Positions 6,379 through 56,760 of a stretch of DNA of 64,000 nucleotides are shown here, piece after piece. The position numbers and the translations under genes were made by a program. The notes under the pieces are model-generated. The model did no database searches. It was given only the letters and a program-made list of their open reading frames with translations, and had not been told where the DNA came from. Within the stretch, counting starts at the first letter, position 1; every line of letters begins with the position of its first letter. The stretch is from Candidatus Helarchaeota archaeon (lineage in GTDB: Archaea; Asgardarchaeota; Lokiarchaeia; Helarchaeales; RDOG01), in the NCBI GenBank assembly GCA_019058315.1, contig JAHPZH010000002.1:160001-224000 (forward strand), given 5' to 3'.

Positions 6379-7731
6379 TCATTTTTTATTATTTAACTTA
6401 TTTTCTATGATATCTGCCATACGATACCCACTTTCAACGGATCCTGTAGTTCCTATAAGTCCAAGTGCCACGCACGCATCCCCTACGTTATACAAATTGG
6501 GTATTGGTGTCTCTAAAGGTAAACCATATCCAAGCCATGTCCATCCCTCAGGACACTGATTTTCACTAAAACATGCTTTAATTTTTAGAATTCGCCCATG
6601 TTTTTTAAAGTCATGAAACATTTCATTCAAGTCTCGCTTTATTTGCTGGATTTCACATTTTGCATCAACAGGATGGATACAAGAAATGGGTTCTACTGAA
6701 GAATAAAGGAGATGCTGGTCACTAGGAGCAAGTTCAGGACAAATATTGCTAATAGGTACAACTGTTCTAATTCTTCGTCCTCCCATCATAATTTCTATTC
6801 CGTCATTTATTCCCTCTAAAACTAAAGGCCTATCGCTAGCAACAAAAACTAAAAGTGACGGGCTTGGTCTTAGTCTAACACGCAAATCCTCAAGATATTT
6901 ATCATCAAAATTTTTTTGACCTGCCAAATCTACTGTCATCTTGGGTCCAGTATCACTTACAACAACTTTGCTTTTTACCTCAATTTCTTTTCCATCCTTT
7001 TCCACGACAACTCCTGTAGCCTTTCCATTTTTAATCGCAATCTTCTTTACAGGACAATTAGCCCACACATCACCATTTTCCTTAACCACTCCAGCCAATT
7101 CATTCGCGACACTTATATTGCCTTTAGATGAGACATAAAATTTCTTAATTTCTTTGAATTTGAAAAATTTTAAAACAGGCAATTCCCAAGAGTGAGCCAT
7201 CATTAAAGCAGCACATAGATTGTCAATTACTTCATGTACTTTTTCATTTTCAGTAAACTGGAGGAGCCAATCATGGACAGTAAAAATTTCTTCTCTTTTT
7301 ATCCCTCTTTTTCCCCTCAAATAACCATTTATAATATTCTTTAAGTTTACTGGTTTTATTTTTCTCCCGTCTTTCTGTTCCTTTTCCTTCTCAAGTTTAT
7401 CAATTAAGTCAAGAACCATTGGCAGTCCTATGTCAACATTTACTTCATAATCCTCACCATTTATTCTATAATATACGCGTGAAACTGGACGTAAATAAGA
7501 CATATCGATTCTTAAATCCTTAAGAAGTTTTATAGTCCAGCTGTCAGGAATGATAATAGCACCAGTTGGTAACTTAAAGCCTTTATATTCAACGGTGGAA
7601 AAACGCCCACCTAAACGTCCTTTCCTTTCCACAACCAATGTTTTGAAACCTTTACGAGATAGGAGAGTTGCTGCCGCTAGTCCACCTAACCCGGATCCGA
7701 TTATTATAATATCATATATTTCATTTTCCAA
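6379..7731 (-). CDS. FAD-dependent oxidoreductase, phytoene-dehydrogenase-like
   Basis: IIIGSGLGGL...VVER..LGGR Rossmann motif; C-terminal TPIPNLYNVGD. Confidence 0.85.
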   Translation of the reverse strand: MENEIYDIIIIGSGLGGLAAATLLSRKGFKTLVVERKGRLGGRFSTVEYKGFKLPTGAIIIPDSWTIKLLKDLRIDMSYLRPVSRVYYRINGEDYEVNVDIGLPMVLDLIDKLEKEKEQKDGRKIKPVNLKNIINGYLRGKRGIKREEIFTVHDWLLQFTENEKVHEVIDNLCAALMMAHSWELPVLKFFKFKEIKKFYVSSKGNISVANELAGVVKENGDVWANCPVKKIAIKNGKATGVVVEKDGKEIEVKSKVVVSDTGPKMTVDLAGQKNFDDKYLEDLRVRLRPSPSLLVFVASDRPLVLEGINDGIEIMMGGRRIRTVVPISNICPELAPSDQHLLYSSVEPISCIHPVDAKCEIQQIKRDLNEMFHDFKKHGRILKIKACFSENQCPEGWTWLGYGLPLETPIPNLYNVGDACVALGLIGTTGSVESGYRMADIIENKLNNKK

Positions 7732-7967
7732 GATAGCTACCTCATATAATTACTCTTAATAAAAAAGACTTAAAGGTATTTATATTATTAAAGAATTGAT
7801 TTGGGAGGAAAATAAGATAAATAAAATCTTTATCATATTCCTGCAAATTTCTGTAATTTATCCCTCTAGATTAAAATGTAATATTGAATCAGATATATTA
7901 TTATTCTCATTTCCTTTAGGTTTAAATATAGTTTATGTTCGAAACTGAAAAATAATGGTGCATTCTT

Positions 7968-8813
7968 ATGTGCGAAATCTGTTTAAAACATGGAACGGGT
8001 AAATATTGGTTTAAATGGGCTAGTCGTTACGCTAGAGAAATGTATTTCAGGAAAAGAACAGAAAAAAGAGCAAAAGTTGGTGGCAGTTTAGAAGGTCAAG
8101 TAGCAGCTTTGGCTTTTCAGGCTATGGAAGCCAAAAATTTAAAACCTGCTAAATATCCAGAATTAATTAAGAAAGCAAATCGGTTAACACGTGAAACTCA
8201 CGGCGGGCAAGTACTAACCCTGGAAGATGCTGAGACTTTAATCGATCTAGCACATCCAATTGCATTTATAGCATGTGATTGTCGACGTCAAAAATATGGT
8301 TATATTGAAAAAGATAGATCTCGAATGACCTGTTTAGGTCTAGGGATAGGAATGTATAGATGGGAACAATTTCCTGCCCGATATGTTGCTGGTGCAGAAT
8401 TCGTCTCTGATAAAGAAGCAAAAGAATGGCTTCGTGATTGGAATAAGAAGGGATTAGTTCAAACATTAATGACCTTTGGAATGAGAGAAGGTGCTCCATA
8501 CATCGGTGGACTGTGTAATTGTTCTTATGCAGATTGCTTGTCTATTAGATGGCGATTAGACTATGGATTTAAGCAGTTATTAAAAGGCGAAAGAGTTGCA
8601 ATTCTAGATACATCCAAATGCAAGGGTTGTTTCAAATGCATAACCAGGTGCCAATTTGGAGCTATTACTGCTGATGTTCGTCAAGAAAAAGCTCATATTG
8701 ATTTGATGAAATGCTTCGGTTGTGGACTCTGTGAAAATGCCTGTCCCCAAAATGCAATTCAATTAGTAGATAGACAAAAGTTTGAAGTCTTAAAACACCC
8801 TTCATCATTTTAA
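7968..8813 (+). CDS. Cys-rich Fe-S protein with a C-terminal 2[4Fe-4S] ferredoxin domain (copy 1)
   Basis: N-terminal CxxCxxHG, CDCRR, LCNCxxxxC, two CxxCxxCxxxC(P) motifs. Confidence 0.85.
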   Translation: MCEICLKHGTGKYWFKWASRYAREMYFRKRTEKRAKVGGSLEGQVAALAFQAMEAKNLKPAKYPELIKKANRLTRETHGGQVLTLEDAETLIDLAHPIAFIACDCRRQKYGYIEKDRSRMTCLGLGIGMYRWEQFPARYVAGAEFVSDKEAKEWLRDWNKKGLVQTLMTFGMREGAPYIGGLCNCSYADCLSIRWRLDYGFKQLLKGERVAILDTSKCKGCFKCITRCQFGAITADVRQEKAHIDLMKCFGCGLCENACPQNAIQLVDRQKFEVLKHPSSF

Positions 8814-34933: not shown

Positions 34934-37900
34934 TTATTTTCCTGAAATTTCTGTATCCATTTCAAAAACTATATCATCTTCGGTAACTGGAGCCTTATTA
35001 AGAATAAATTCTTCAATTTGTTTATCTAAAGGTTCGATTTTAGAATTTAATTCTTTAATTTTTTGATATAATTCTTCGATTTTTACTTCTTGAACCTCTA
35101 ACTTTCCAGTATATCTTGCTCTTGATGATTGTTCGCTAGAGTGTAAACTTTTCAAATTTTCCCTTAATCTTTTTTGGTCCTGAACAATATCATCATATTC
35201 TTTTTGTAACTCAGAAATTTCTTTTAAGATGTCCTTTTTGTTTTCTAATAAACCTACTAATTCCAAAAGGAACTCGTTCTGTTCATTATTTAAAAGGTTT
35301 CTTTCGATCCAGTGCTCTATTACTATTCTCGTTATATCTGTATAAATTATGCTAGATTCCGTTTTAGTTCTTAGCTTAAATTCATATTCTTTATTTAATG
35401 TTGATTCAGCAATTCTTGTCTTAAAACTCCAAAACTTAAATTTCTCTCGATAATCATAATCACCTGGAACAATTTCATAATTAGACTCTTTTGCATGTTC
35501 TATGATAATATCTCGAGAAAATTCATTGTGGTTTGTCATGGTGTATACATTTGTTTGGATTATGTAATATTTTTCATAAATACCGGATCTTTTAAAGACA
35601 ATTTCATGAGGTTCTTTCTGGGTTTTTTCTGATTTTCTATGTATCACATATACATTCGTATCTTGATCTACTGGAATTCGATATTTATCATTTTCTTTTA
35701 GGGTTGGTAATATGGATTCACCAATGTAATTCTTTTTGTCCCAAACCGTAACTGGACCACACATTATGGTTTTTGCTAACGTGTTTTCTATTTCAAAATT
35801 TAATATAGGGTACTCTGAACCTCTATCCAAATTAAAAACTAGATATAACTGACAATTAACTCGTTCTCTGAAAATATTCTCTATTTTCGACTGTCTCCCA
35901 GGAACAAGATCAACTCTAGGATCATCTAAATATTTTTGTATATTTGCATCGTTCATTTTGTAACATTCTAAGTTGAATCCTTCAGTTTCTTTAATCAATT
36001 TATAGGAAAGTTCTGAGTCATTGATTAATTTCATATTAGAAAATTGATTCATTCCTTCTTGTGCAAATGGTGTAAATGAGAATGGATCTCTTATTGGACC
36101 TTTGAACTTCAATACGAATGTTTTTTTCTCTTTTGGACCAATATTGATCAAAAATCTATAGAAATCTTGAAGTTCTTCATAAGGATTTGAAGAATCAAAT
36201 AGATCATACTGAATTTTGGGATGTTCGAGGATAATCGCCTTACTTTCCTCACCTTTATTCTCGAGAGAATATTCATAGATATATATTAATTCCTTTAAAC
36301 GGAAAAGTCCCCATAAGTAATAAATTAGACCAGTATCTTCGGTTTTTGTTTCAGTGTTTAATATAATTTCACAATTTGTGTCAATTGAATATGGTATGAT
36401 TGTTTTCTCTTTCTTTTCTAAGATCGGTAGCATACCTACGCTTAAAAATTTCTCATCCTGATATATTGTTATGGGACCTGATTCTATGATTTTATCCAAA
36501 GAATTGATTACTTCAACACATTTTAAAGGATAATTTCTAGTATAAGTGTAGTTAAATAAGCTAATTTTTTTGCCATCAATTTCGGATTCATATTTATTTT
36601 CTATGACATTTTGTTGAACATCATCGATTTTCTTTTCTTTTACTTCACAACATTTCAGTTTTAATGTATCCGGCTTCATAGTAATATTATATGTTAAATC
36701 TGTGCTTACAATAAGTCCTTGAGAATGTAATCTATTTACTAGATTTGGAGATATCGAATCGAGACCTGTGCCAATTTTATTTAATTTTCTAAAAGTAATT
36801 ACGAACTCTTTAACCTCTCGAGCTTTTATTTCTACTCTGAATCTAAGATAATTTGCTGTTTTTTCAATGGGTTCTTCAGTATCATAAAGATAAAAACCTG
36901 AGACTTTTGGCTGTTCTATAATAAGAGCTTTATCTAATGTTGAAGAATTAATTATTTTATAAACAAATTTTTTGATACTATAGACCATTTTATAAAAACT
37001 GCCATTTTTAAAAATAAATTGTCTCGTATCTTTTTGAATATCCTCAATTTTCTTTAGAACTCTTACCTGTAAATCAACAGAATACGGAACTCTTCTTTCC
37101 TCAGTTGGTCTTAAAAATGGTAAAACTGCTTCACCCTCAAAAATAGCTTCCGATGATTCGGGCTCGAAACCATAAAATGAAATAGGTCCACTTTCTAAGG
37201 AATATCCACTCGTGTTTTTAATGTTAACAGAAAGCATCGGGTTAATTTCTCGAACTTTTTCATTGTAAACACTCACTTTTTCTCCTTTGATTTTCTTTTG
37301 AAGTATTGGAATTAAAGCAGATTGATTTCTTTTAACAGTTACAGGTACTGGCACAACATATCTAAAAGCTAACTCTTCCGAAGATTTAGCCTCTTCAGAT
37401 ACTTTAAAATCGGAAACCGTTTTAGACGAGCTATCAGCTGAGGTACCTGATGAAAAAGCTAAACTAGATGTAGGTCCACCTCTAAAAACACTAGTAGCAT
37501 CTGCTATAGTTAATTTTGGTAGATCATCAGGTATCTCTTCTTCATCCATGTCCATTTCAAGTTCTATTGGCTCTTCTTTTCCTAATTCTCTCATTTTTCT
37601 TTTCTTTGGTGCTTTTAATTCGGACATTAATGCTGAGGTTGCTCGTGCCATTGGTGGAGGTGGTGCAGGTACCGCAGGAGGACCGCCTGGACCCGCAGCA
37701 AAACCTAATTTTTTACCTTTTTTAGGTCGTGAGGGTTTTCTTTCAACTGCACCTGCTGGCATATCTTCTGTTTCTGGAAGAAGTCCAACTTCAGCTTCAC
37801 TTTCCTCAAATTCAACAGCAGATAAACCATACTCTTTTTCTGGTTTCTTAAAGGATCGAGTTATCCAATTTGGTGTGTACAAATCGTAGACGAAAGAAAT

Positions 37901-38656
37901 AGGAAGCCCAGACACTAAAGTAAGATCCACATTTAGCCAATCTTCGTCTAGAACATTATCGACTAAGGCGTAATTTTGTAAATAAAATTCAGAATCATCT
38001 TCAAACATTCCGCTTATTAAACGATAACTACATTTCCAGCTTGGAGTATCTTGAAGGTATATTATCATTACTTCTTCGTTAGGCGAATCCCCATCAAAAT
38101 AAATCGTTAATGTTTTATTATCTTTCTTTTTGCCCAAATAGATGGTATTAATAAAAAATTCTAACTCATCTTGCATTTTTTTATCTTGTAATGTAAAGTT
38201 TGAGTCTGGACCTGTTATATCCATTAATTTAATATTTTTTATCTGTCCACCCTTCTCGCAGATTGTGACATAGGGTTCAGGTATCGCCTTTTCCTTTCCC
38301 TCTCTCAGATATTCTTGAATTCCTAAAATCTTTCCTTCAACCATATGATTTGTGAATTCTATTTTAATTTCGGTCCCAATTAATTGCTTTATAAGGGTAA
38401 TAAACGCATCAATTTGTGGAACTTTAATTAATGATCCCTCTAATGCCTTTGCTGTGTCGATATCACTTGCTTCATAGGATACACCAGCTATTTTCGCTTT
38501 CTCTGTCAAAATCGAAAGTGTTGCCAGAAGATCATTCATTGTTTTCTTTCTAAAAGAAAAAGTCACAGACTTATCTTTAGTTAAGTCAATGGCACCTCTT
38601 CTCTCAAAGTATCCAATTCCAGTCTTAAATAGTACAACTTTTTTAATATCTAACAT
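34934..38656 (-). CDS. large DUF4139-family protein with three repeated C-terminal modules and a terminal coiled coil
   Basis: VVLFKTGIGYFERRG, W.CSYRL, VDN...EDW.NV.LTLVSG.PISF.YDLY; repeats ESGPISFY / ESGPITIY / MCGPVTVW and IIE(H/Q)xK. Confidence 0.8.
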   Translation of the reverse strand: MLDIKKVVLFKTGIGYFERRGAIDLTKDKSVTFSFRKKTMNDLLATLSILTEKAKIAGVSYEASDIDTAKALEGSLIKVPQIDAFITLIKQLIGTEIKIEFTNHMVEGKILGIQEYLREGKEKAIPEPYVTICEKGGQIKNIKLMDITGPDSNFTLQDKKMQDELEFFINTIYLGKKKDNKTLTIYFDGDSPNEEVMIIYLQDTPSWKCSYRLISGMFEDDSEFYLQNYALVDNVLDEDWLNVDLTLVSGLPISFVYDLYTPNWITRSFKKPEKEYGLSAVEFEESEAEVGLLPETEDMPAGAVERKPSRPKKGKKLGFAAGPGGPPAVPAPPPPMARATSALMSELKAPKKRKMRELGKEEPIELEMDMDEEEIPDDLPKLTIADATSVFRGGPTSSLAFSSGTSADSSSKTVSDFKVSEEAKSSEELAFRYVVPVPVTVKRNQSALIPILQKKIKGEKVSVYNEKVREINPMLSVNIKNTSGYSLESGPISFYGFEPESSEAIFEGEAVLPFLRPTEERRVPYSVDLQVRVLKKIEDIQKDTRQFIFKNGSFYKMVYSIKKFVYKIINSSTLDKALIIEQPKVSGFYLYDTEEPIEKTANYLRFRVEIKAREVKEFVITFRKLNKIGTGLDSISPNLVNRLHSQGLIVSTDLTYNITMKPDTLKLKCCEVKEKKIDDVQQNVIENKYESEIDGKKISLFNYTYTRNYPLKCVEVINSLDKIIESGPITIYQDEKFLSVGMLPILEKKEKTIIPYSIDTNCEIILNTETKTEDTGLIYYLWGLFRLKELIYIYEYSLENKGEESKAIILEHPKIQYDLFDSSNPYEELQDFYRFLINIGPKEKKTFVLKFKGPIRDPFSFTPFAQEGMNQFSNMKLINDSELSYKLIKETEGFNLECYKMNDANIQKYLDDPRVDLVPGRQSKIENIFRERVNCQLYLVFNLDRGSEYPILNFEIENTLAKTIMCGPVTVWDKKNYIGESILPTLKENDKYRIPVDQDTNVYVIHRKSEKTQKEPHEIVFKRSGIYEKYYIIQTNVYTMTNHNEFSRDIIIEHAKESNYEIVPGDYDYREKFKFWSFKTRIAESTLNKEYEFKLRTKTESSIIYTDITRIVIEHWIERNLLNNEQNEFLLELVGLLENKKDILKEISELQKEYDDIVQDQKRLRENLKSLHSSEQSSRARYTGKLEVQEVKIEELYQKIKELNSKIEPLDKQIEEFILNKAPVTEDDIVFEMDTEISGK

Positions 38657-48093: not shown

Positions 48094-49278
48094 ATGGTAA
48101 AAGTTGCTAAACGATTAGAGAAATTTGAATATGCAATTCGAGATGTAGTTGCAGTTGCACAAGAATTGGAGAAAAAAGGGAAAAAAATTACATATTTATC
48201 TATAGGAGATACTGCAAAATATTTTGAAACCCCAGAGCATATAAAAAAAGCTTTTACTAAGGCAGCTAATGAAAATTTTAATTATTATGTTGATTCTTTA
48301 GGTATTTTAGAACTCAGAAAAGCTATTGCTGAGAGCCAAAATAAAGAATACGGATTAAATGTTTCTCCAGAAGATGTCTTAATCACAGCTGGTGTGAGTG
48401 AAGCAATTGAATTTATTTATGCAGGTTTGATTGAACAAAATGATGAAATTATCATTCCAGGTCCTTCCTACCCACCCTTCAGTTCTTACTGCCTTCTTTA
48501 TGGAGGGAAACCTGTTGAGTATAAAATGGACGAAGAAAACAATTGGCAACCTGATATCGAAGATTTAAGAAAAAAAATTACAGATAAAACAAGATCAATT
48601 GTAATAATATCACCTAATAATCCAGTTGGTGTTTTATATAACGAAAAAGTATTAAAAGAAATTATTAATATTGCTGGAGAACACGATCTCCCCATTATTT
48701 CAGATGATATTTATGAAAAGTATGTATATGAAGGCTCTTTTGTAAATACAGCTTCATTAGCAAAAGATGTAAGCGTTATTACCTTTAAAGGATTCTCAAA
48801 AACATATAAAATGACGGGCTTGCGTTTAGGTTCTATTATATACCATGACCCAAATGATAAATTAACTGATTTTAAAGAGGATATAAAGAAATTAGCAAGA
48901 ATTAGATTATGTGCAAACGCACCTGCACAAATGGCTGGAATCGCAGCCTTGACTGGACCACAAGGGCATGTAAAAGAAACAGTTAAACAACTAAAACAAC
49001 ATAGAGATTTTTGTTTAGAACGCTTAAATGAAATTGAAGGGATAGAGTGTAAAAAACCTGAAGGTGCATTTTATCTATTCCCTAAAATAAACCTTGGTAA
49101 TAGATGGAAGGACGATAAAGAGTTTGTGATCGATTTTTTAAACAAGAAACAAGTATTATTCGTTTATGGCTCTGGCTTTGGAAAAGTTTATGGTCCAAGT
49201 CATGTTAGAATCGTTTATTTAGCTCCAATCTCAACATTAAAAGATGCGATGGATAAACTAGCAGAGTTTATGAAATAA
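48094..49278 (+). CDS. class I/II aminotransferase (alanine aminotransferase-like)
   Basis: EYAIRD, ISPNNPVG, DDIY, GFSKTY.MTGLRLG, PEGAFY, GSGFG. Confidence 0.92.
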   Translation: MVKVAKRLEKFEYAIRDVVAVAQELEKKGKKITYLSIGDTAKYFETPEHIKKAFTKAANENFNYYVDSLGILELRKAIAESQNKEYGLNVSPEDVLITAGVSEAIEFIYAGLIEQNDEIIIPGPSYPPFSSYCLLYGGKPVEYKMDEENNWQPDIEDLRKKITDKTRSIVIISPNNPVGVLYNEKVLKEIINIAGEHDLPIISDDIYEKYVYEGSFVNTASLAKDVSVITFKGFSKTYKMTGLRLGSIIYHDPNDKLTDFKEDIKKLARIRLCANAPAQMAGIAALTGPQGHVKETVKQLKQHRDFCLERLNEIEGIECKKPEGAFYLFPKINLGNRWKDDKEFVIDFLNKKQVLFVYGSGFGKVYGPSHVRIVYLAPISTLKDAMDKLAEFMK

Positions 49279-49551: not shown

Positions 49552-49590
49552 AATTCCCAATGATGAAGGTGATCCCAACTGATGTGAAAT
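49552..49590 (+). ncRNA. candidate C/D-box sRNA unit 1
   Basis: C box ATGATGA at 49560-66, 12-nt guide AGGTGATCCCAA, D box CTGA at 49579-82. Confidence 0.6.
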
Positions 49591-49629
49591 ACTAACTGTT
49601 TTTAATTAATATTCATCAATACCAGGATT

Positions 49630-49673
49630 TAATTATCCCAATGATGAAGAGGTGATACTCTGAGGGATAATTA
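49630..49673 (+). ncRNA. candidate C/D-box sRNA unit 2 with a perfect 10-bp terminal stem
   Basis: TAATTATCCC-A-ATGATGA-AGAGGTGATACT-CTGA-GGGATAATTA. Confidence 0.7.
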
Positions 49674-49752
49674 GTTCTAAAATTTTGAAAAATATAATAA
49701 AAAGATAGGTTAGGATAAATTAGGAGTATTTAGGAAATAAAAAATTAGAAAA

Positions 49753-49800
49753 TCAGGTTTGAATTTTTACAACTAAATCTGGTTCCACTTCAACAGCCCA
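49753..49800 (-). repeat. displaced copy of the ilvE 3' end (direct repeat of 51787-51834)
   Basis: 44/48 nt identical; encodes WAVEVEPDLVVKIQT* versus WVVEVEPDLVVKIQT*. Confidence 0.9.
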
Positions 49801-49855
49801 GATTATATCCTCAAGTTTAAAAACTTAAATATGATAAATTTTATACCATATTAGA

Positions 49856-51738
49856 ATGGTTAATAACTATAAAGGGGAAAAAAAATCAACGATTCGATAA
49901 TATTTAAAAGTAAAGTCGGCTCTGATCAGAAGAATAATTGGTGTATCTGTTGTTTCTCTCCATTAGGGCTATTTCTCTTTATTTTAGTTGTATTCCATCC
50001 TAAATCGAATTTAATATTTCAAGTAGTAGGAGGAATTGGCTCTTTATTTTTGTTTACAAGTCTTTTTTTAGTGGGCTTTCAATCCATTCGTACATTTTTG
50101 ATAATATATAATGATGGAATAAAAATTGCGACTCCATATAGGTCTTTAGGACACAAATTCATACCTTGGCATGCTATAAAAGAAATTGAATTGTATTATA
50201 GAGGGCGTATTGGTTCAAGATATGACTCTCGAACTTATTATGAAATTTACATTTTTATTAAAAATCAACCAAAATCCTTAAAAATTTCAGAACTTTGGGT
50301 AGAAAATATAGAAACAGCATATAATTTGATAAAGAAACATATTAAACCTTTGCAAAAAACTGAAAATTGTCAAAATCATCCTAAAATTAAGACTGTAGAA
50401 CAATGTCGTACTTGTGGTGCTTATTTTTGTGAAAAATGTATTGAAAAGAAAAGTATTGAGGGGTTTAAATTTTGTGAGTGTTCCTTATGTATATATAATG
50501 TAGGATTAAATAGAATAAAGAAATGTTATTTTTTCTCTCTAATTTGTCCATTGATTTTTTTAATTTCTATAATTTTAAAACTATTGATAAATCTTGAAAA
50601 CGATTTAACACTAAATCTATACATAATTTCTTTCATTCTATCACTTCCATTTGCATTTATTACAACTCCTCATGGATATGGATTTTATTTTGCTAATGTA
50701 AAAAGGAAGGAAATATTAGAACAGTTAAATATAAGATTTGATCAATATTCATTAAAAAAACTCAAGTTTTTTGTGATTTTAATTAATTTAATTAATCCAA
50801 TCTTTTATTTTTGCTTTTTTTACCTATTATATCCAAGTTCTCACATAATTTTAAGTAGTATTTTTATGTCAATCTATCTTATTTTAACAATAATTTTTAC
50901 AAAAATTTCCTATAATATTGAAAAACCGAAAAAAACAGAGGAATGGAGTACACCTTTAGAGAGACTTATTTGTTCCAATTGTGGAGAAATATTTACTTTG
51001 AAATCTGATTATTGTTCATGTTGTGGTTCTAAAATCGATATCACTCAACCAACACATAGAGAAAATAGAAAATTTAAAAGCTTTAAATGTTATAACATCA
51101 TAATAGAAAAAGAAACTCATAATGAACTTATTCTAGTCAAAGATAACCGAAATTCTGCAGAAAAATCATCAAAAACAGAGATGAAATGCATTATAGTTTT
51201 ATTAATTCCTGTTCTATTTATTATTTTATTTTCTTTTAGCTTAGAAGCACTCCAATTTTTAGTTCTTCTTATTTTTCCATTACCTATTCTTATATTTTTT
51301 CTTATTGTATATTTTTTTGAAAGAATTGAAATAAATAAAGTTCAGAAATTGACAATCGATAAAAAAAATCAAAAAATTACTTACTATAAAAATTCTCTGG
51401 ATCCAACAAAAAAAATCGAAATATATGATATTAATACACTAAAAGTAATTGAAATAAAAGATTATAGACAAATAATTAATGAGATTAGACTTATTTTTTC
51501 AATAAATGAACTGAAATTATTTGGAATCATGCGTAAAAATAATATTATTCCAATCTATAAAAAATTAAGTTCTTATTTAGAAATTCCTATAATAGGAACT
51601 GAAGGGAAAAAAGTAATAGACTTAAATGAAGAAAAACTTTATACAGATTCTATATGCTGTCTTTATTGCGGATTTAATAATCTAATTAATGATAAAATAC
51701 AATATTGTATGAAATGCGGTGAAAAAATTTATAAGTAG
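49856..51738 (+). CDS. modular membrane protein (TM, PH-like, B-box-like Zn finger, Zn ribbons); 5' part frameshifted at an A8 tract (in-frame ORF 50050-51738)
   Basis: CQNHP...CRTCGAYFCEKC (B-box-like), CSNCG..YCSCCG, CLYCG..YCMKCG. The frame is open from 49873, but the ATG at 49856 is in a different frame. Confidence 0.65.
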
Positions 51739-51786
51739 TCAATAAAATCTGCCAATTTGAATAGATATAATAAAAAAATAAGAGAT

Positions 51787-52833
51787 TCAAGTTTGGATTT
51801 TTACAACTAAATCTGGTTCTACTTCAACAACCCACCCAAAAATATCTTCTTCTTCTTGAAGTTGAATTTTTGTAAGCAAGTCATATAATTTTTGAGTTAC
51901 TGACCCTACTTTAAAATCATTAAATACATGATCTTTACCCTTGTATAACAAGGATCCTATTGGAGTAACGACTGCAGCAGTACCAGAACAGAAAACCTCA
52001 GAAGCTTTCAATACTTCGTCAATTGTAATGTCTCGTTCTTCAACTTTCATTTTTAATTTCTTTTTAGCTATATCAATTATTGAAGCTCTTGTATTTCCTG
52101 GTAATATTGATCCAGTAAGTCTTGGTGTCATTAAAACGTTATTAACTACACAGAAAAAGTTTGCAGTTCCAACTTCTTCAATATACTTACCATTTGCTGC
52201 ATCTAGATATAATTCCTGATTATACCCTTTTTCTTTAACTTTTTTTGCTGGAAGCATCGAACCTGCATAATTACAAATGGTTTTAATACCACCAGTTCCT
52301 TTGGGGGCAGCTCTATGAAATTCTGTTATTGCTAATTTAATCGGATTAAATCCTTCTTTATAATAAGGACCCACTGGAACCACAAAAATTATAAATGTAT
52401 AACTAGGGGCGGGAGCAACTCCTAAAATTGGACCAGTTCCCCATAATACAGGTCGAATATATAACGCTCCTTTTCCATATGGTGGAATATAATCTTCATT
52501 TATTTTTACTACTTTCTTGACATCATCTACGAATTTCTTTGGATCATAGGGTGGGATTAGTAAACGTTCACAACCCGCTTTGAGTCTTTTTCCATTATCT
52601 AAAGGTCTAAAAAGCACAAGTTTATTCGCTTTTGTCCTTAACGCTTTCATACCTTCGAAAATGCCTTGTCCATAGTTTAATACACATGCAGCTGGTGAAA
52701 TTTCAAAATTTCCAAATGGAACAACTTTACCTTCATCCCAACCAGTCTTTTCTTCCCACTTCGAAAGAAACATACCCTTAGTTGGCATGAAATCGAAACC
52801 GAGATTGTCCCAGTCTATATTTACATCTGTCAT
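51787..52833 (-). CDS. ilvE: branched-chain amino acid aminotransferase
   Basis: LNYGQGIFEGMKA, LYIRP, GTGGIKTICNY, EEVGTANFF, ILPG.TR.S, SGTAAVVTPI. Confidence 0.96.
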   Translation of the reverse strand: MTDVNIDWDNLGFDFMPTKGMFLSKWEEKTGWDEGKVVPFGNFEISPAACVLNYGQGIFEGMKALRTKANKLVLFRPLDNGKRLKAGCERLLIPPYDPKKFVDDVKKVVKINEDYIPPYGKGALYIRPVLWGTGPILGVAPAPSYTFIIFVVPVGPYYKEGFNPIKLAITEFHRAAPKGTGGIKTICNYAGSMLPAKKVKEKGYNQELYLDAANGKYIEEVGTANFFCVVNNVLMTPRLTGSILPGNTRASIIDIAKKKLKMKVEERDITIDEVLKASEVFCSGTAAVVTPIGSLLYKGKDHVFNDFKVGSVTQKLYDLLTKIQLQEEEDIFGWVVEVEPDLVVKIQT

Positions 52834-53099: not shown

Positions 53100-53238
53100 G
53101 GGCCTGTGGCATAGTATGGGCATATTCCTTTGACTAAAAGATATAGTATAGATAGTGCGCTGGCTTGCGGAGCCAGAAATCATGGGTTCAAAGTTAAAGA
53201 GAAACATTCTCCTTAACGAACATATCCCATCAGGCCCA
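53100..53238 (+). tRNA. tRNA-Arg(GCG) with D-loop and T-loop introns
   Basis: GGGCCTG/CAGGCCC acceptor stem, CTGGC-TTGCGGA-GCCAG anticodon arm, ATGGG/CCCAT T stem; insertions at about 53119-53150 and 53192-53223. Confidence 0.88.
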
Positions 53239-53433
53239 TTTTTCTCTTTTTAATAATGTAATTTCGTTGTACACAATCTGAAGAACTTTAATTTCTCTCT
53301 AAATAATGCTCTTTATGAGCGCGGTTATACAAATGACGAATACAAATCCTAAAAAAGAATATTTATTTTTAGAAATATTTCTTAAAATGGAAGCAATTAT
53401 CCAAAATTTTTATACTTAAAATAACCTGAAATA

Positions 53434-53556
53434 GGGTCTGTGGCTTAGGTTGGATTACATTTCCAAAGAGAGCACCTGCCTCCGGAGCAGGAGTTCATGG
53501 GTTCAAAGTTATAGAATGGACGATTCTTTAACGGATATATCCCATCAGACCCGCCA
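53434..53556 (+). tRNA. tRNA-Arg(CCG) with D-loop and T-loop introns, CCA encoded
   Basis: GGGTCTG/CAGACCC acceptor stem, CCTGC-CTCCGGA-GCAGG anticodon arm, ATGGG/CCCAT T stem; insertions at about 53455-53468 and 53507-53538. Confidence 0.88.
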
Positions 53557-53579: not shown

Positions 53580-53894
53580 CTAAAGAACGAAGAAAAAGAT
53601 CGAAATTAATATTATAACTATTAATGCAGCTATCAAAATGTAAAAAGCTGGGCTTTTATATAACCCCCTCTTTTTCGGGCTTGGAGCAAATTTCTCATAA
53701 CATTTCTTTGAACAAAAAGCCATATATGAAATTGATTTGTTATCAGATTTGCGTACAATTTTATAGGTTTGACCTTTTTCTACCATTTGATCACAAACTA
53801 AACAGTGATAATGGGGATAAATAGAGACAGCTTCTGCTTGTTCTTGGCGTATCTTCCTTTTCCATTTTTGTAAGGGTTTCTTTGGCTCTGACAT
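53580..53894 (-). CDS. DUF2116-like Zn-ribbon protein with a C-terminal TM anchor
   Basis: PHYHCLVC...FCSKKC followed by a hydrophobic tail. Confidence 0.7.
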   Translation of the reverse strand: MSEPKKPLQKWKRKIRQEQAEAVSIYPHYHCLVCDQMVEKGQTYKIVRKSDNKSISYMAFCSKKCYEKFAPSPKKRGLYKSPAFYILIAALIVIILISIFFFVL

Positions 53895-55704: not shown

Positions 55705-56760
55705 CTAAATTTCTAAAAAACTCTTTATTTTTTGAAAAAAAATTAGACTTACTATCCTTTGCTGATGACCATGATTTGAGCATTTTATACAAAATAAAAA
55801 ATATTGAGATTTTTTAATTGTATCCTTCAATATTGCTGATTGACCACAAATTTCGCATTTGAGAATATTATTTGCAATAATTCTATATAATTTTGGAGAT
55901 ATTTCTTCTGGAGATATATGACTAGGGAAAATAATTTTCAAAAATATATCGTGTAATATGCACTTTACAATAAGAATTATTCTATTATTTCCTATATAAC
56001 GTTTCTCGAACAAAAATTTTTTAATTATATTAAATTCCCCATTTAATGGACATGCCAAGGTAATTCCATGTCTTTGCAGAATATTTAATTTTTTGAACTC
56101 TATATTATTTTGAATTTTACCACCACATTCAGCACAATAATCTGAATTATCCTCTTTTTCAATTCTAGCACCACAATAAAGGCAATAAAAGAAATGCGTA
56201 AAAAAATCTTTATTAGTAATTACATTCTTCGCTCCAAATTTCTTCTTCCCTATGAAATGAACACTTAGATATTTTAATAATTTATTGCAAATTATAATAG
56301 CTTGTTCTTTACTACATTGAGCAAAAATCTCTATTTTATTAGTCTTAAAACTAAGAAGTATTTTGTAGTAAGTTTCACCATACCATCTTACCTTAAAATT
56401 TATTAATTTAATAGCTACAAGAGTATTAATGGCATATTCTTTTACTTTATGAGGCTTTAAATAATTTTTATAGTATATTATTTTTTGATTTTCTTTATCA
56501 ATAATCAATTTCTTTACTTTATTCGTATTCCATAGAGTAGATAAAAATATTGTAAATGCGAAGAATAGTATTATTAAAAATAAATATTCCGGTGATTTAT
56601 AATATAACATAACAATTGTGGTAATTATACAAATTAATATACAAATTAAACTAATAATATAAGAAAAAATATAAGTTTTATTAGAAACCACCCTTGTATC
56701 CTTTGTTAGGGTTAAGCGATTATCTGATTCCTCTTCAATATCGATTTCTAATCTTCGCAT
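55705..56760 (-). CDS. 2TM + PH-like + Zn-ribbon membrane protein
   Basis: Paralogous to the C-terminal part of 50050-51738 (NKVKKLIIDKENQKIIYYKN; CLYCG...YCAECG), with extra Cys/His motifs. Confidence 0.65.
   Translation of the reverse strand: MRRLEIDIEEESDNRLTLTKDTRVVSNKTYIFSYIISLICILICIITTIVMLYYKSPEYLFLIILFFAFTIFLSTLWNTNKVKKLIIDKENQKIIYYKNYLKPHKVKEYAINTLVAIKLINFKVRWYGETYYKILLSFKTNKIEIFAQCSKEQAIIICNKLLKYLSVHFIGKKKFGAKNVITNKDFFTHFFYCLYCGARIEKEDNSDYCAECGGKIQNNIEFKKLNILQRHGITLACPLNGEFNIIKKFLFEKRYIGNNRIILIVKCILHDIFLKIIFPSHISPEEISPKLYRIIANNILKCEICGQSAILKDTIKKSQYFLFCIKCSNHGHQQRIVSLIFFQKIKSFLEI

Follow-up and report, generated by a model that had tools for sequence, protein, structure and literature searches.

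The acquisition of accessory genes by Asgard archaea is little known, the described routes being integrase-bearing elements, viruses and integrons. Here we analyse a 2-kb insertion at the 3′ end of ilvE, a branched-chain amino acid aminotransferase gene, in a stretch of 64,000 nt (hereafter the window) from a Candidatus Helarchaeota archaeon (GenBank assembly GCA_019058315.1, contig JAHPZH010000002.1), where one gene lies between the intact ilvE and a second, orphaned copy of its 3′ end. Among the closest described systems are phage 21 and e14 in Escherichia coli icd, which bring a substitute, diverged gene 3′ end, encode an integrase and an excisionase, and are 15–40 kb long. The ilvE locus resembles these in that the gene stays intact through a diverged copy of its 3′ end and in its imperfect direct repeats, whose differences are mostly synonymous; its insert, however, is 2 kb long and holds one gene and no recombinase.

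Displacement of C-terminal (3′) gene ends is described for rhs, CDI (contact-dependent growth inhibition) and type VI secretion system (T6SS) effector loci (Jackson et al. 2009; Kirchberger et al. 2017, both as cited in PMC5361080), and the orphaned 3′ regions at rhs and T6SS loci have been attributed to homology-facilitated illegitimate recombination (HFIR; PMC5361080). In those systems, as would be the case at ilvE, DNA anchored in the conserved part of a gene brings a new 3′ end and one or more downstream genes, and the old end is left orphaned downstream, with no integrase involved. Repeated events at the rhs, CDI and T6SS loci build strings of orphans, and the displaced ends are differing toxin domains with immunity genes, in bacteria and under diversifying selection, whereas at ilvE the two tails are near-identical ends of a housekeeping aminotransferase, the inserted gene is unrelated and the host is an Asgard archaeon.

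HFIR has been described in transformable bacteria (de Vries and Wackernagel 2002; Prudhomme et al. 2002; Meier and Wackernagel 2003, all as cited in PMC5361080), and also for conjugation of E. coli (PMC3240628). The likeness to ilvE would be that incoming DNA is anchored by homology on one side, is joined illegitimately on the other and so enters the chromosome without a dedicated recombinase, although the bacterial events were shown experimentally with defined donors and the ilvE event is read from its scar alone. Of the elements described from Asgard archaea, Yucahu-i uses a tyrosine integrase together with an att motif of 11 bp, and mini-Yucahu (2,644 bp) circularises (PMC11529989); aloposons integrate at tRNA genes (PMC8813620). 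These share with the ilvE insert that DNA has been integrated in an Asgard chromosome, including a very small (2.6-kb) sub-element, but protein-gene 3′-end duplication has not been reported for either Yucahu-i or aloposons.

Structure of the insertion at ilvE

The window corresponds to positions 160001-224000 of contig C5 of the genome (labelled G000), a metagenome-assembled genome (MAG) of 5.79 Mb in 12 contigs with ∼30% G+C and a contamination estimate of 6.6%. The features of the insertion are as follows (positions in the window).

49736..49800, minus strand: orphan ilvE tail (left repeat copy, DR-L), with the last 15 codons, TGA at 49753-49755 and a trailer of 14-17 nt
49801..49855, plus strand: AT-rich leader of 55 nt between the orphan tail and the cargo ATG, with TATA-like stretches
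49856..51738, plus strand: cargo gene, frame open for 621 codons from 49873; the ATG at 49856 is one base out of frame
51769..51834, minus strand: resident ilvE tail and trailer (right repeat copy, DR-R), made up of the final 48 coding nt, the stop codon (51787-51789) and a further 18 nt with a T7 run
51787..52833, minus strand: ilvE, branched-chain amino acid aminotransferase, intact, 348 aa (Pfam Aminotran_4 at 1.2e-38)

A repeat search returned a direct repeat of 62 nt (49739-49800 and 51773-51834; 55/62 identical) with a start-to-start distance of 2034 nt, which gapped alignment widened to 49736-49800 and 51769-51834 (66 columns, 88% identity). An earlier, sequence-only reading of this DNA had reported repeats of 48 bp ending exactly at the stop codon; the direct repeat and its 2034 spacing are real, but the length is 62-66 nt and similarity continues for 14-18 nt past the stop. 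In gene orientation, and counted from the end of the stop codon, the repeat extends from −48 to +18 and comprises 15 codons of ilvE, the TGA and a T-rich trailer of 14-18 nt with a T7 tract; the two trailers differ by three mismatches and one indel. Only these two copies were found when the region was searched with BLAST against the whole genome, the second at E 2.7e-16. The right copy is the genuine 3′ end of ilvE, while the orphan tail, having ∼24 in-frame open codons and no start codon, is not a gene.

The limits of the repeat are sharp. Homology is confined to the gene unit and breaks off abruptly at −48 of ilvE; when 160 nt on either side of the repeat was aligned and compared with shuffled sequence, scores were 14 against 13.2 ± 2.3 on the right and 17 against 17.7 ± 3.0 on the left. 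Strict and soft local alignments of the flanks, again judged against shuffles, revealed nothing of a longer decayed ilvE past 49736-49800. The repeat folded no better than shuffles (z 0.47 and 0.33 for the two copies), and neither an attC-like structure nor a terminator hairpin was significant. The two copies share an identical run of 22 nt, which is also to be expected of any pair of sequences that are 89% identical.

Within the 48 coding nt the copies differ at four positions, three of them synonymous and at third positions (GTA/GTG, ATC/ATT, ACT/ACC), the fourth a V-to-A replacement in the orphan, as had been read from the sequence earlier. The further claim that both copies evolved as coding sequence, and so represent two alleles, has this pattern in its favour, although with four differences, three of them at third positions, it is suggestive only (p ∼0.11 under random placement, 9/81). 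The proteins nearest to ilvE are P0002 (95% identical) and P0003 (88%, Helarchaeota according to its source), and its nearest named relatives are Helarchaeota MAGs. Since V is kept at the replaced position in the ilvE products of G000, P0002, P0003 and the same-family genome G001, the A in the orphan is the derived state. Comparison with the tails of P0002 and P0003 at the protein level does not tell which of the two copies came from a donor and which from a recipient allele, and the amino-acid differences between ilvE and these relatives are evenly spread, with no visible recombination break. The orphan tail is nearer to the G000 tail (one difference in 15 residues) than the tail of the 88% relative is (four differences), which places the event within a genus-level clade.

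The inserted gene

Between the repeat copies lie 1,968 nt with a single gene on the plus strand, opposite to ilvE. No integrase, transposase, replication or structural gene is present in the insert, which consists of the one gene and margins of 55 and 30 nt, and its ends hold no inverted repeats; the proposal of a 3′-end-replacing insertion without an integrase thus agrees with its content. The 55-nt leader is presumably the cargo's own promoter, judging from its composition.

The cargo had been described as a modular membrane/Zn-finger gene on the opposite strand, which was confirmed, except that its frame is open from 49873 and not only from the TTG at 50050. The likely start, an ATG at 49856, would be in frame if the A8 run at 49878-49885 had one extra A; the one-base offset may be a true frameshift or else an assembly error in the homopolymer. 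The database call of the gene (555 aa) begins within the second transmembrane (TM) helix, while paralogues begin M-(T/S)-x-I-L-F-K-S-K, which aligns with ...I-N-D-S-I-I-F-K-S-K of the cargo, upstream of its first in-frame ATG/GTG/TTG. In order, the protein has 2 TM segments, a PH-like region, a Cys-rich Zn module, 4 TM segments, a zinc ribbon, 2 TM segments, a second PH-like region and a C-terminal double zinc ribbon, that is, two TM/PH-like/zinc modules with ∼7 hydrophobic segments and eight CxxC pairs.

No Pfam family matched the cargo protein above threshold, no homologue of near or shorter length was found in a database of 5.8 billion proteins, and a protein atlas gave no usable match. Its only detected relatives are paralogues within this genome, among them C5:872665-873717 (40% to the N-terminal half) and window positions 55705-56760 on the far side of ilvE (38% to the C-terminal half), and the cargo is a lineage-specific membrane/zinc-ribbon protein. 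As there is no DNA-level copy elsewhere in the genome, it is not a recent intragenomic duplicate, and since no similar bracketing repeat was found around any of the paralogues, the family is not itself mobile in a repeat-bracketed manner. Near two short paralogues of the N-terminal module (C5:860784-863634) we noted a 256-nt repeat with 93% identity (860872-861127 and 863379-863634), as well as a perfect 21-nt repeat across the stop of gene C5:859097-860788 (860784-860804 and 862586-862606).

Recurrence of orphan gene ends across the genome

Open reading frames (ORFs) of at least 110 aa were called, giving 4,548 genes, and segments of these were probed for copies elsewhere. With 48-nt probes, the numbers of short copies outside called genes within ±15 kb were small (3′ ends 6, 5′ ends 8, three interior probes 0-2 each). 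With 110-nt BLAST probes across the whole genome, genes with copies outside called genes numbered 42 for the 3′ end, 25 for the 5′ end, and 17 and 15 for two interior probes, which bears out the earlier suggestion that the event at ilvE is a recurrent one. A strict set was then defined by local, direct, stop-spanning matches, with loci that had interior matches removed. It held nine loci with 3′ orphans, eight of them downstream of the gene and one upstream, while the orphans of 5′ ends (seven loci) lay upstream in five cases and downstream in two; a paralogue control for direction was roughly balanced (68/83 and 68/47). This bias in direction is what insertion models predict, whereas the decay of tandem copies would predict about 1:1.

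At least eight further loci have an anatomy like that of ilvE (gene, insert, orphan tail; 77-89% identity), which makes at least nine in all. Eight loci are listed below, with repeat boundaries relative to the end of the stop codon.

C5:971345: repeat −60 to +20; insert, a 214-aa Zn-ribbon membrane gene
C11:743828: repeat −102 to +35; insert, a 217-aa membrane gene and a 169-aa double-zinc-ribbon gene
C5:36683: repeat −56 to +29; insert, a radical-SAM gene and a 440-aa gene
C1:101642: repeat −153 to +18; insert, a geranylgeranyl-reductase-like gene
C11:456714: repeat −284 to +13; insert, a thiolase-like cluster (thiolase/HMG-CoA-synthase-like)
C7:30373: repeat −48 to +23; insert, a 2,543-aa gene and a 557-aa gene
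C5:696465: repeat −82 to +25; a 599-aa gene and the gene's own body between the copies, the orphan being upstream
DUF4139 gene of this window: repeat about −75 to +14; no insert, copies 250 nt apart

In the seven loci that bear an insert, the proximal boundary ranges from −48 to −284 but the distal one always falls 13-35 nt past the stop, and in five of eight short-repeat loci compared it comes just after a run of T4-T7. In each of these eight the repeat has the stop close to its distal end, with 4-34% of its length following; that all eight fall below 0.35 has p ∼2e-4 under uniform placement, though the probes are biased to coding homology. The repeats differ in length from locus to locus, from 66 to about 300 nt. 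A motif common to the repeat boundaries, the search for which had been proposed as a check, was not seen at boundaries or targets across loci.

The DUF4139 gene (34934-38656, minus strand, 1,240 aa) had been put forward as a second event in the same window. Its tail and T-rich trailer (∼35008-34920) are repeated downstream at 34758-34660, with 77% identity over an ungapped core of 48 nt; the alignment scores 52, while shuffles average 25.5 (sd 3.3) and reach at most 40. The repeat is therefore real, but it is weaker than that at ilvE and no gene lies between the copies. The idea that the route feeds variable membrane proteins into the chromosome is weakened, as it is not specific for these: the inserts at other loci are often ordinary cellular or metabolic genes, such as those of the thiolase-like, radical-SAM and geranylgeranyl-reductase-like loci, and one insert has the giant gene of 2,543 aa.

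Some gene tails have more than one copy. That of the 148-aa gene C11:743828-744274 has, besides its orphan 1.6 kb downstream, two copies on contig C10 (194958-195004, 96% over 47 nt; 197897-198000, 83% over 106 nt) and behaves as a repeated boundary sequence. Two distant spots outside called genes, C6:29054-29111 and C3:986481-986531, are each matched by the tails of several different genes (C1:24577, C11:232467, C11:731294; C3:15655, C3:789274), and these spots may represent orphaned ends from paralogue families, at a distance from any source gene.

Genomic setting and comparison with relatives

The gap that holds the insert is framed on its left by the following features.

48094..49278, plus strand: class I/II aminotransferase, aspC-like (Pfam Aminotran_1_2 at 2.6e-62), the conserved left frame of the gap
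49552..49673, plus strand: two C/D-box-like units 81 nt apart (C box ATGATGA, 12 nt, CTGA), in the aspC-ilvE spacer left of the orphan tail

The aspC-like gene and ilvE are convergent. For the C/D-box-like units, Rfam gave one weak match only, to snoZ5, a C/D snoRNA model; at 24.8 bits (E 0.37) it is below the gathering threshold. The C-terminus of ilvE is ∼10 residues longer in G000, P0002 and P0003 than in other Helarchaeota, whose proteins stop shortly after a conserved G-W-V motif; the repeat begins exactly at the W codon. This extension could be a product of an older rearrangement of the tail.

The same-family genome G001, with an ilvE identity of 76%, is too distant to serve as an empty site. 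It retains the order pdxT-pdxS-aspC followed by a convergent ilvE, with another filling: its aspC-ilvE gap of 1.8 kb contains a membrane gene with a Zn ribbon, a HEPN/nucleotidyltransferase (HEPN/MNT) pair and two tRNA-like genes, and no orphan ilvE tail was found there. As the frame is the same and the filling different, the aspC-ilvE gap is a variable slot in a conserved frame. On contig C89 (L158) of G001 the tRNA-like genes lie at ∼7240-7500 and the pair of HEPN (135 aa) and nucleotidyltransferase (152 aa) genes at 7613-8463, abutting ilvE; if the nucleotidyltransferase ORF is read at its longest, it runs into the ilvE stop with a 19-nt overlap.

The G000 counterpart of this Zn-ribbon gene and a tRNA-Arg pair are on the other side of ilvE and inverted. 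They form one block, consisting of two intron-bearing tRNA-Arg-like genes at 53101-53556 on the plus strand, with a common 72-nt repeat (79%; 53168-53237 and 53483-53552), and the Zn-ribbon gene at 53580-53894. A reconstruction of gene order from G000, G001 and G003 was set aside; the p104/tRNA block is on differing sides of ilvE, and the genomes are too distant to derive the steps.

Each of six same-family or same-order genomes gave one ilvE match, those of G001 and G003 being fragments cut by contig ends. A scan of metagenome and genome contig collections with ilvE returned nothing closer than 69% identity, and the ilvE-tail pattern had 0 matches in viral contigs.

A proposed homology-anchored recombination and its alternatives

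We favour, with moderate confidence, a reading of the 2-kb insert as a 3′-end displacement scar, left when DNA of a close relative recombined one-sidedly, with homology as the anchor. It builds on the anatomy of the locus, on homology that ends sharply, on an insert devoid of recombinase and of other features of an element, and on the fact that such scars recur in the genome with a preferred direction. The ancestral layout would have been the aspC-like gene and ilvE converging on a spacer of ∼460 nt with the C/D-box-like units. DNA of a close relative, carrying an ilvE allele and a different downstream neighbour (the TM/PH-like/Zn-ribbon gene), would then have recombined in, one end being anchored by homology within ilvE and the other attached, with no homology, at a point 48 nt short of the resident stop, as in HFIR; an equivalent route would be a single crossover of a circular molecule of tail and cargo made by the host recombination system. 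The incoming tail and trailer would now complete ilvE, and the old, native tail and trailer, shifted 2,034 nt downstream, would be the decaying orphan, with no part played by an element-encoded recombinase. The recurrent anatomy fits two gene-end copies that may have diverged as functional genes in different contexts, and the lineage-specific cargo family fits a closely related donor.

Several points weigh against this reading. HFIR has, to our knowledge, not been demonstrated in any Asgard archaeon. The donor is only postulated, since a cargo homologue outside the genome was not detected; the contig collections returned no relative closer than 69%; and four coding differences (p ∼0.11) cannot show allelic origin. 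The genome-wide counts are small and come from crude ORF calls, so that some of the "non-genic" matches may be tails of small paralogues, and the rule for the distal boundary is not universal, as the repeats at C11:210323 and C3:721939 run ∼300 nt past the stop. In bacteria, moreover, ordinary homologous recombination is more frequent than HFIR by orders of magnitude (PMC5361080).

A rather unlikely alternative is that the insert is the remnant, or a non-autonomous rider, of an integrase-mediated integrative element whose attP carried a substitute ilvE 3′ end, the integrase having later been deleted or acting in trans. The layout does resemble attL/attR, with imperfect direct repeats of a gene 3′ end and trailer and the gene kept intact; the 22-nt identical run could act as a core; small circularising sub-elements such as the 2,644-bp mini-Yucahu exist in Asgard archaea (PMC11529989); and the tRNA-like genes and toxin-antitoxin pair in the G001 gap are typical island content. 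Yet the insert holds none of the genes of such an element, and the ilvE-tail pattern was in no viral contig. The Asgard elements described so far integrate by way of an 11-bp att motif or at tRNA genes, and the only two PF00589 tyrosine recombinase matches in the 5.8 Mb (C5:822820-823377 and C7:268825-269295) are both far from the ilvE locus. At least eight like loci have unrelated targets, no common motif and often housekeeping-type cargo, and a single site-specific integrase cannot explain loci so constituted. The integrase acting in trans that the sequence-only reading had entertained is unlikely on the same grounds.

It is distinctly unlikely that the repeat arose in situ, with cargo inserted at a staggered break or by template switching, 62-66 nt across the ilvE stop being copied in the process and the copies diverging since. 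Survivorship would explain the direct orientation, the intact gene and the 3′-downstream/5′-upstream bias, if only duplications at gene ends survive selection, and the sole polarisable difference (V to A) is derived in the orphan, as for a neutral copy. Placement of the stop near the distal end of the repeat in 8/8 loci (p ∼2e-4, with coding-biased probes) runs counter to such an origin, however, as do the spread of repeat lengths and the absence of a source copy of the cargo from the genome.

Still less probable is that the orphan is a relic of a second ilvE, either a tandem or a horizontally acquired paralogue, whose body was deleted so that the last 48 nt were left; this had been named beforehand as the finding that would overturn the proposal. 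Whole-gene pseudocopies do occur in the genome (C7:239307, C10:199651 and C5:685685), and just upstream of the orphan an in-frame stretch bears a faint likeness that is not significant (E-D-I-I-W, compared with E-D-I-F-G-W). A second ilvE is nevertheless not supported: the flanks of the repeat are at shuffle level, the six same-family or same-order genomes gave no second match, the deletion would have to be nearly exact, with only 55 nt from orphan to cargo ATG, and the 8:1 downstream bias is at odds with random decay of tandem copies. An assembly artefact, in which two strain haplotypes were joined in the MAG, is highly improbable in spite of the contamination estimate and of the A8 frameshift that hints at homopolymer errors, because the join would link non-homologous sequence at −48 of ilvE while assemblers err at repeats, the orphan's flanks are its own and unique, and the same anatomy recurs at at least eight loci with 77-89% identity.

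Three further candidates were rejected. For a transposon with target-site duplication, there is no transposase, there are no terminal inverted repeats, and repeat length is variable (66 to ∼300 nt). For an integron gene cassette, the repeat has no significant fold and no integrase is nearby. An RNA-mediated (cDNA) origin of the orphans, raised by the oligo-T run that often precedes the repeat end, was set against orphans that nearly all lie ≤10 kb downstream of their source gene in the same orientation and two loci that have no T run.

Implications

The ilvE insert most likely marks the gain of a gene through one-sided homologous recombination by the host itself. A broader and decidedly speculative view, which we consider doubtful, is that gene ends in this Asgard lineage are general docking sites that need no recombinase, a unit of tail and cargo looping out via the repeats and re-entering the same gene end in a relative by host recombination. 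If true, many accessory genes (at least nine loci here) would be gained, swapped and lost as cassettes without mobile-element machinery, and the archaeal group closest to eukaryotes would possess a gene-flow route that is distinct.

For annotation, the lesson is that such orphan tails are neither genes nor att sites. As datable scars, they could serve to count and time gene gain in metagenome-assembled genomes. Recombinase-free scars at the ends of ordinary genes such as ilvE suggest that genes are added at conserved gene boundaries simply by host recombination with relatives that have diverged.

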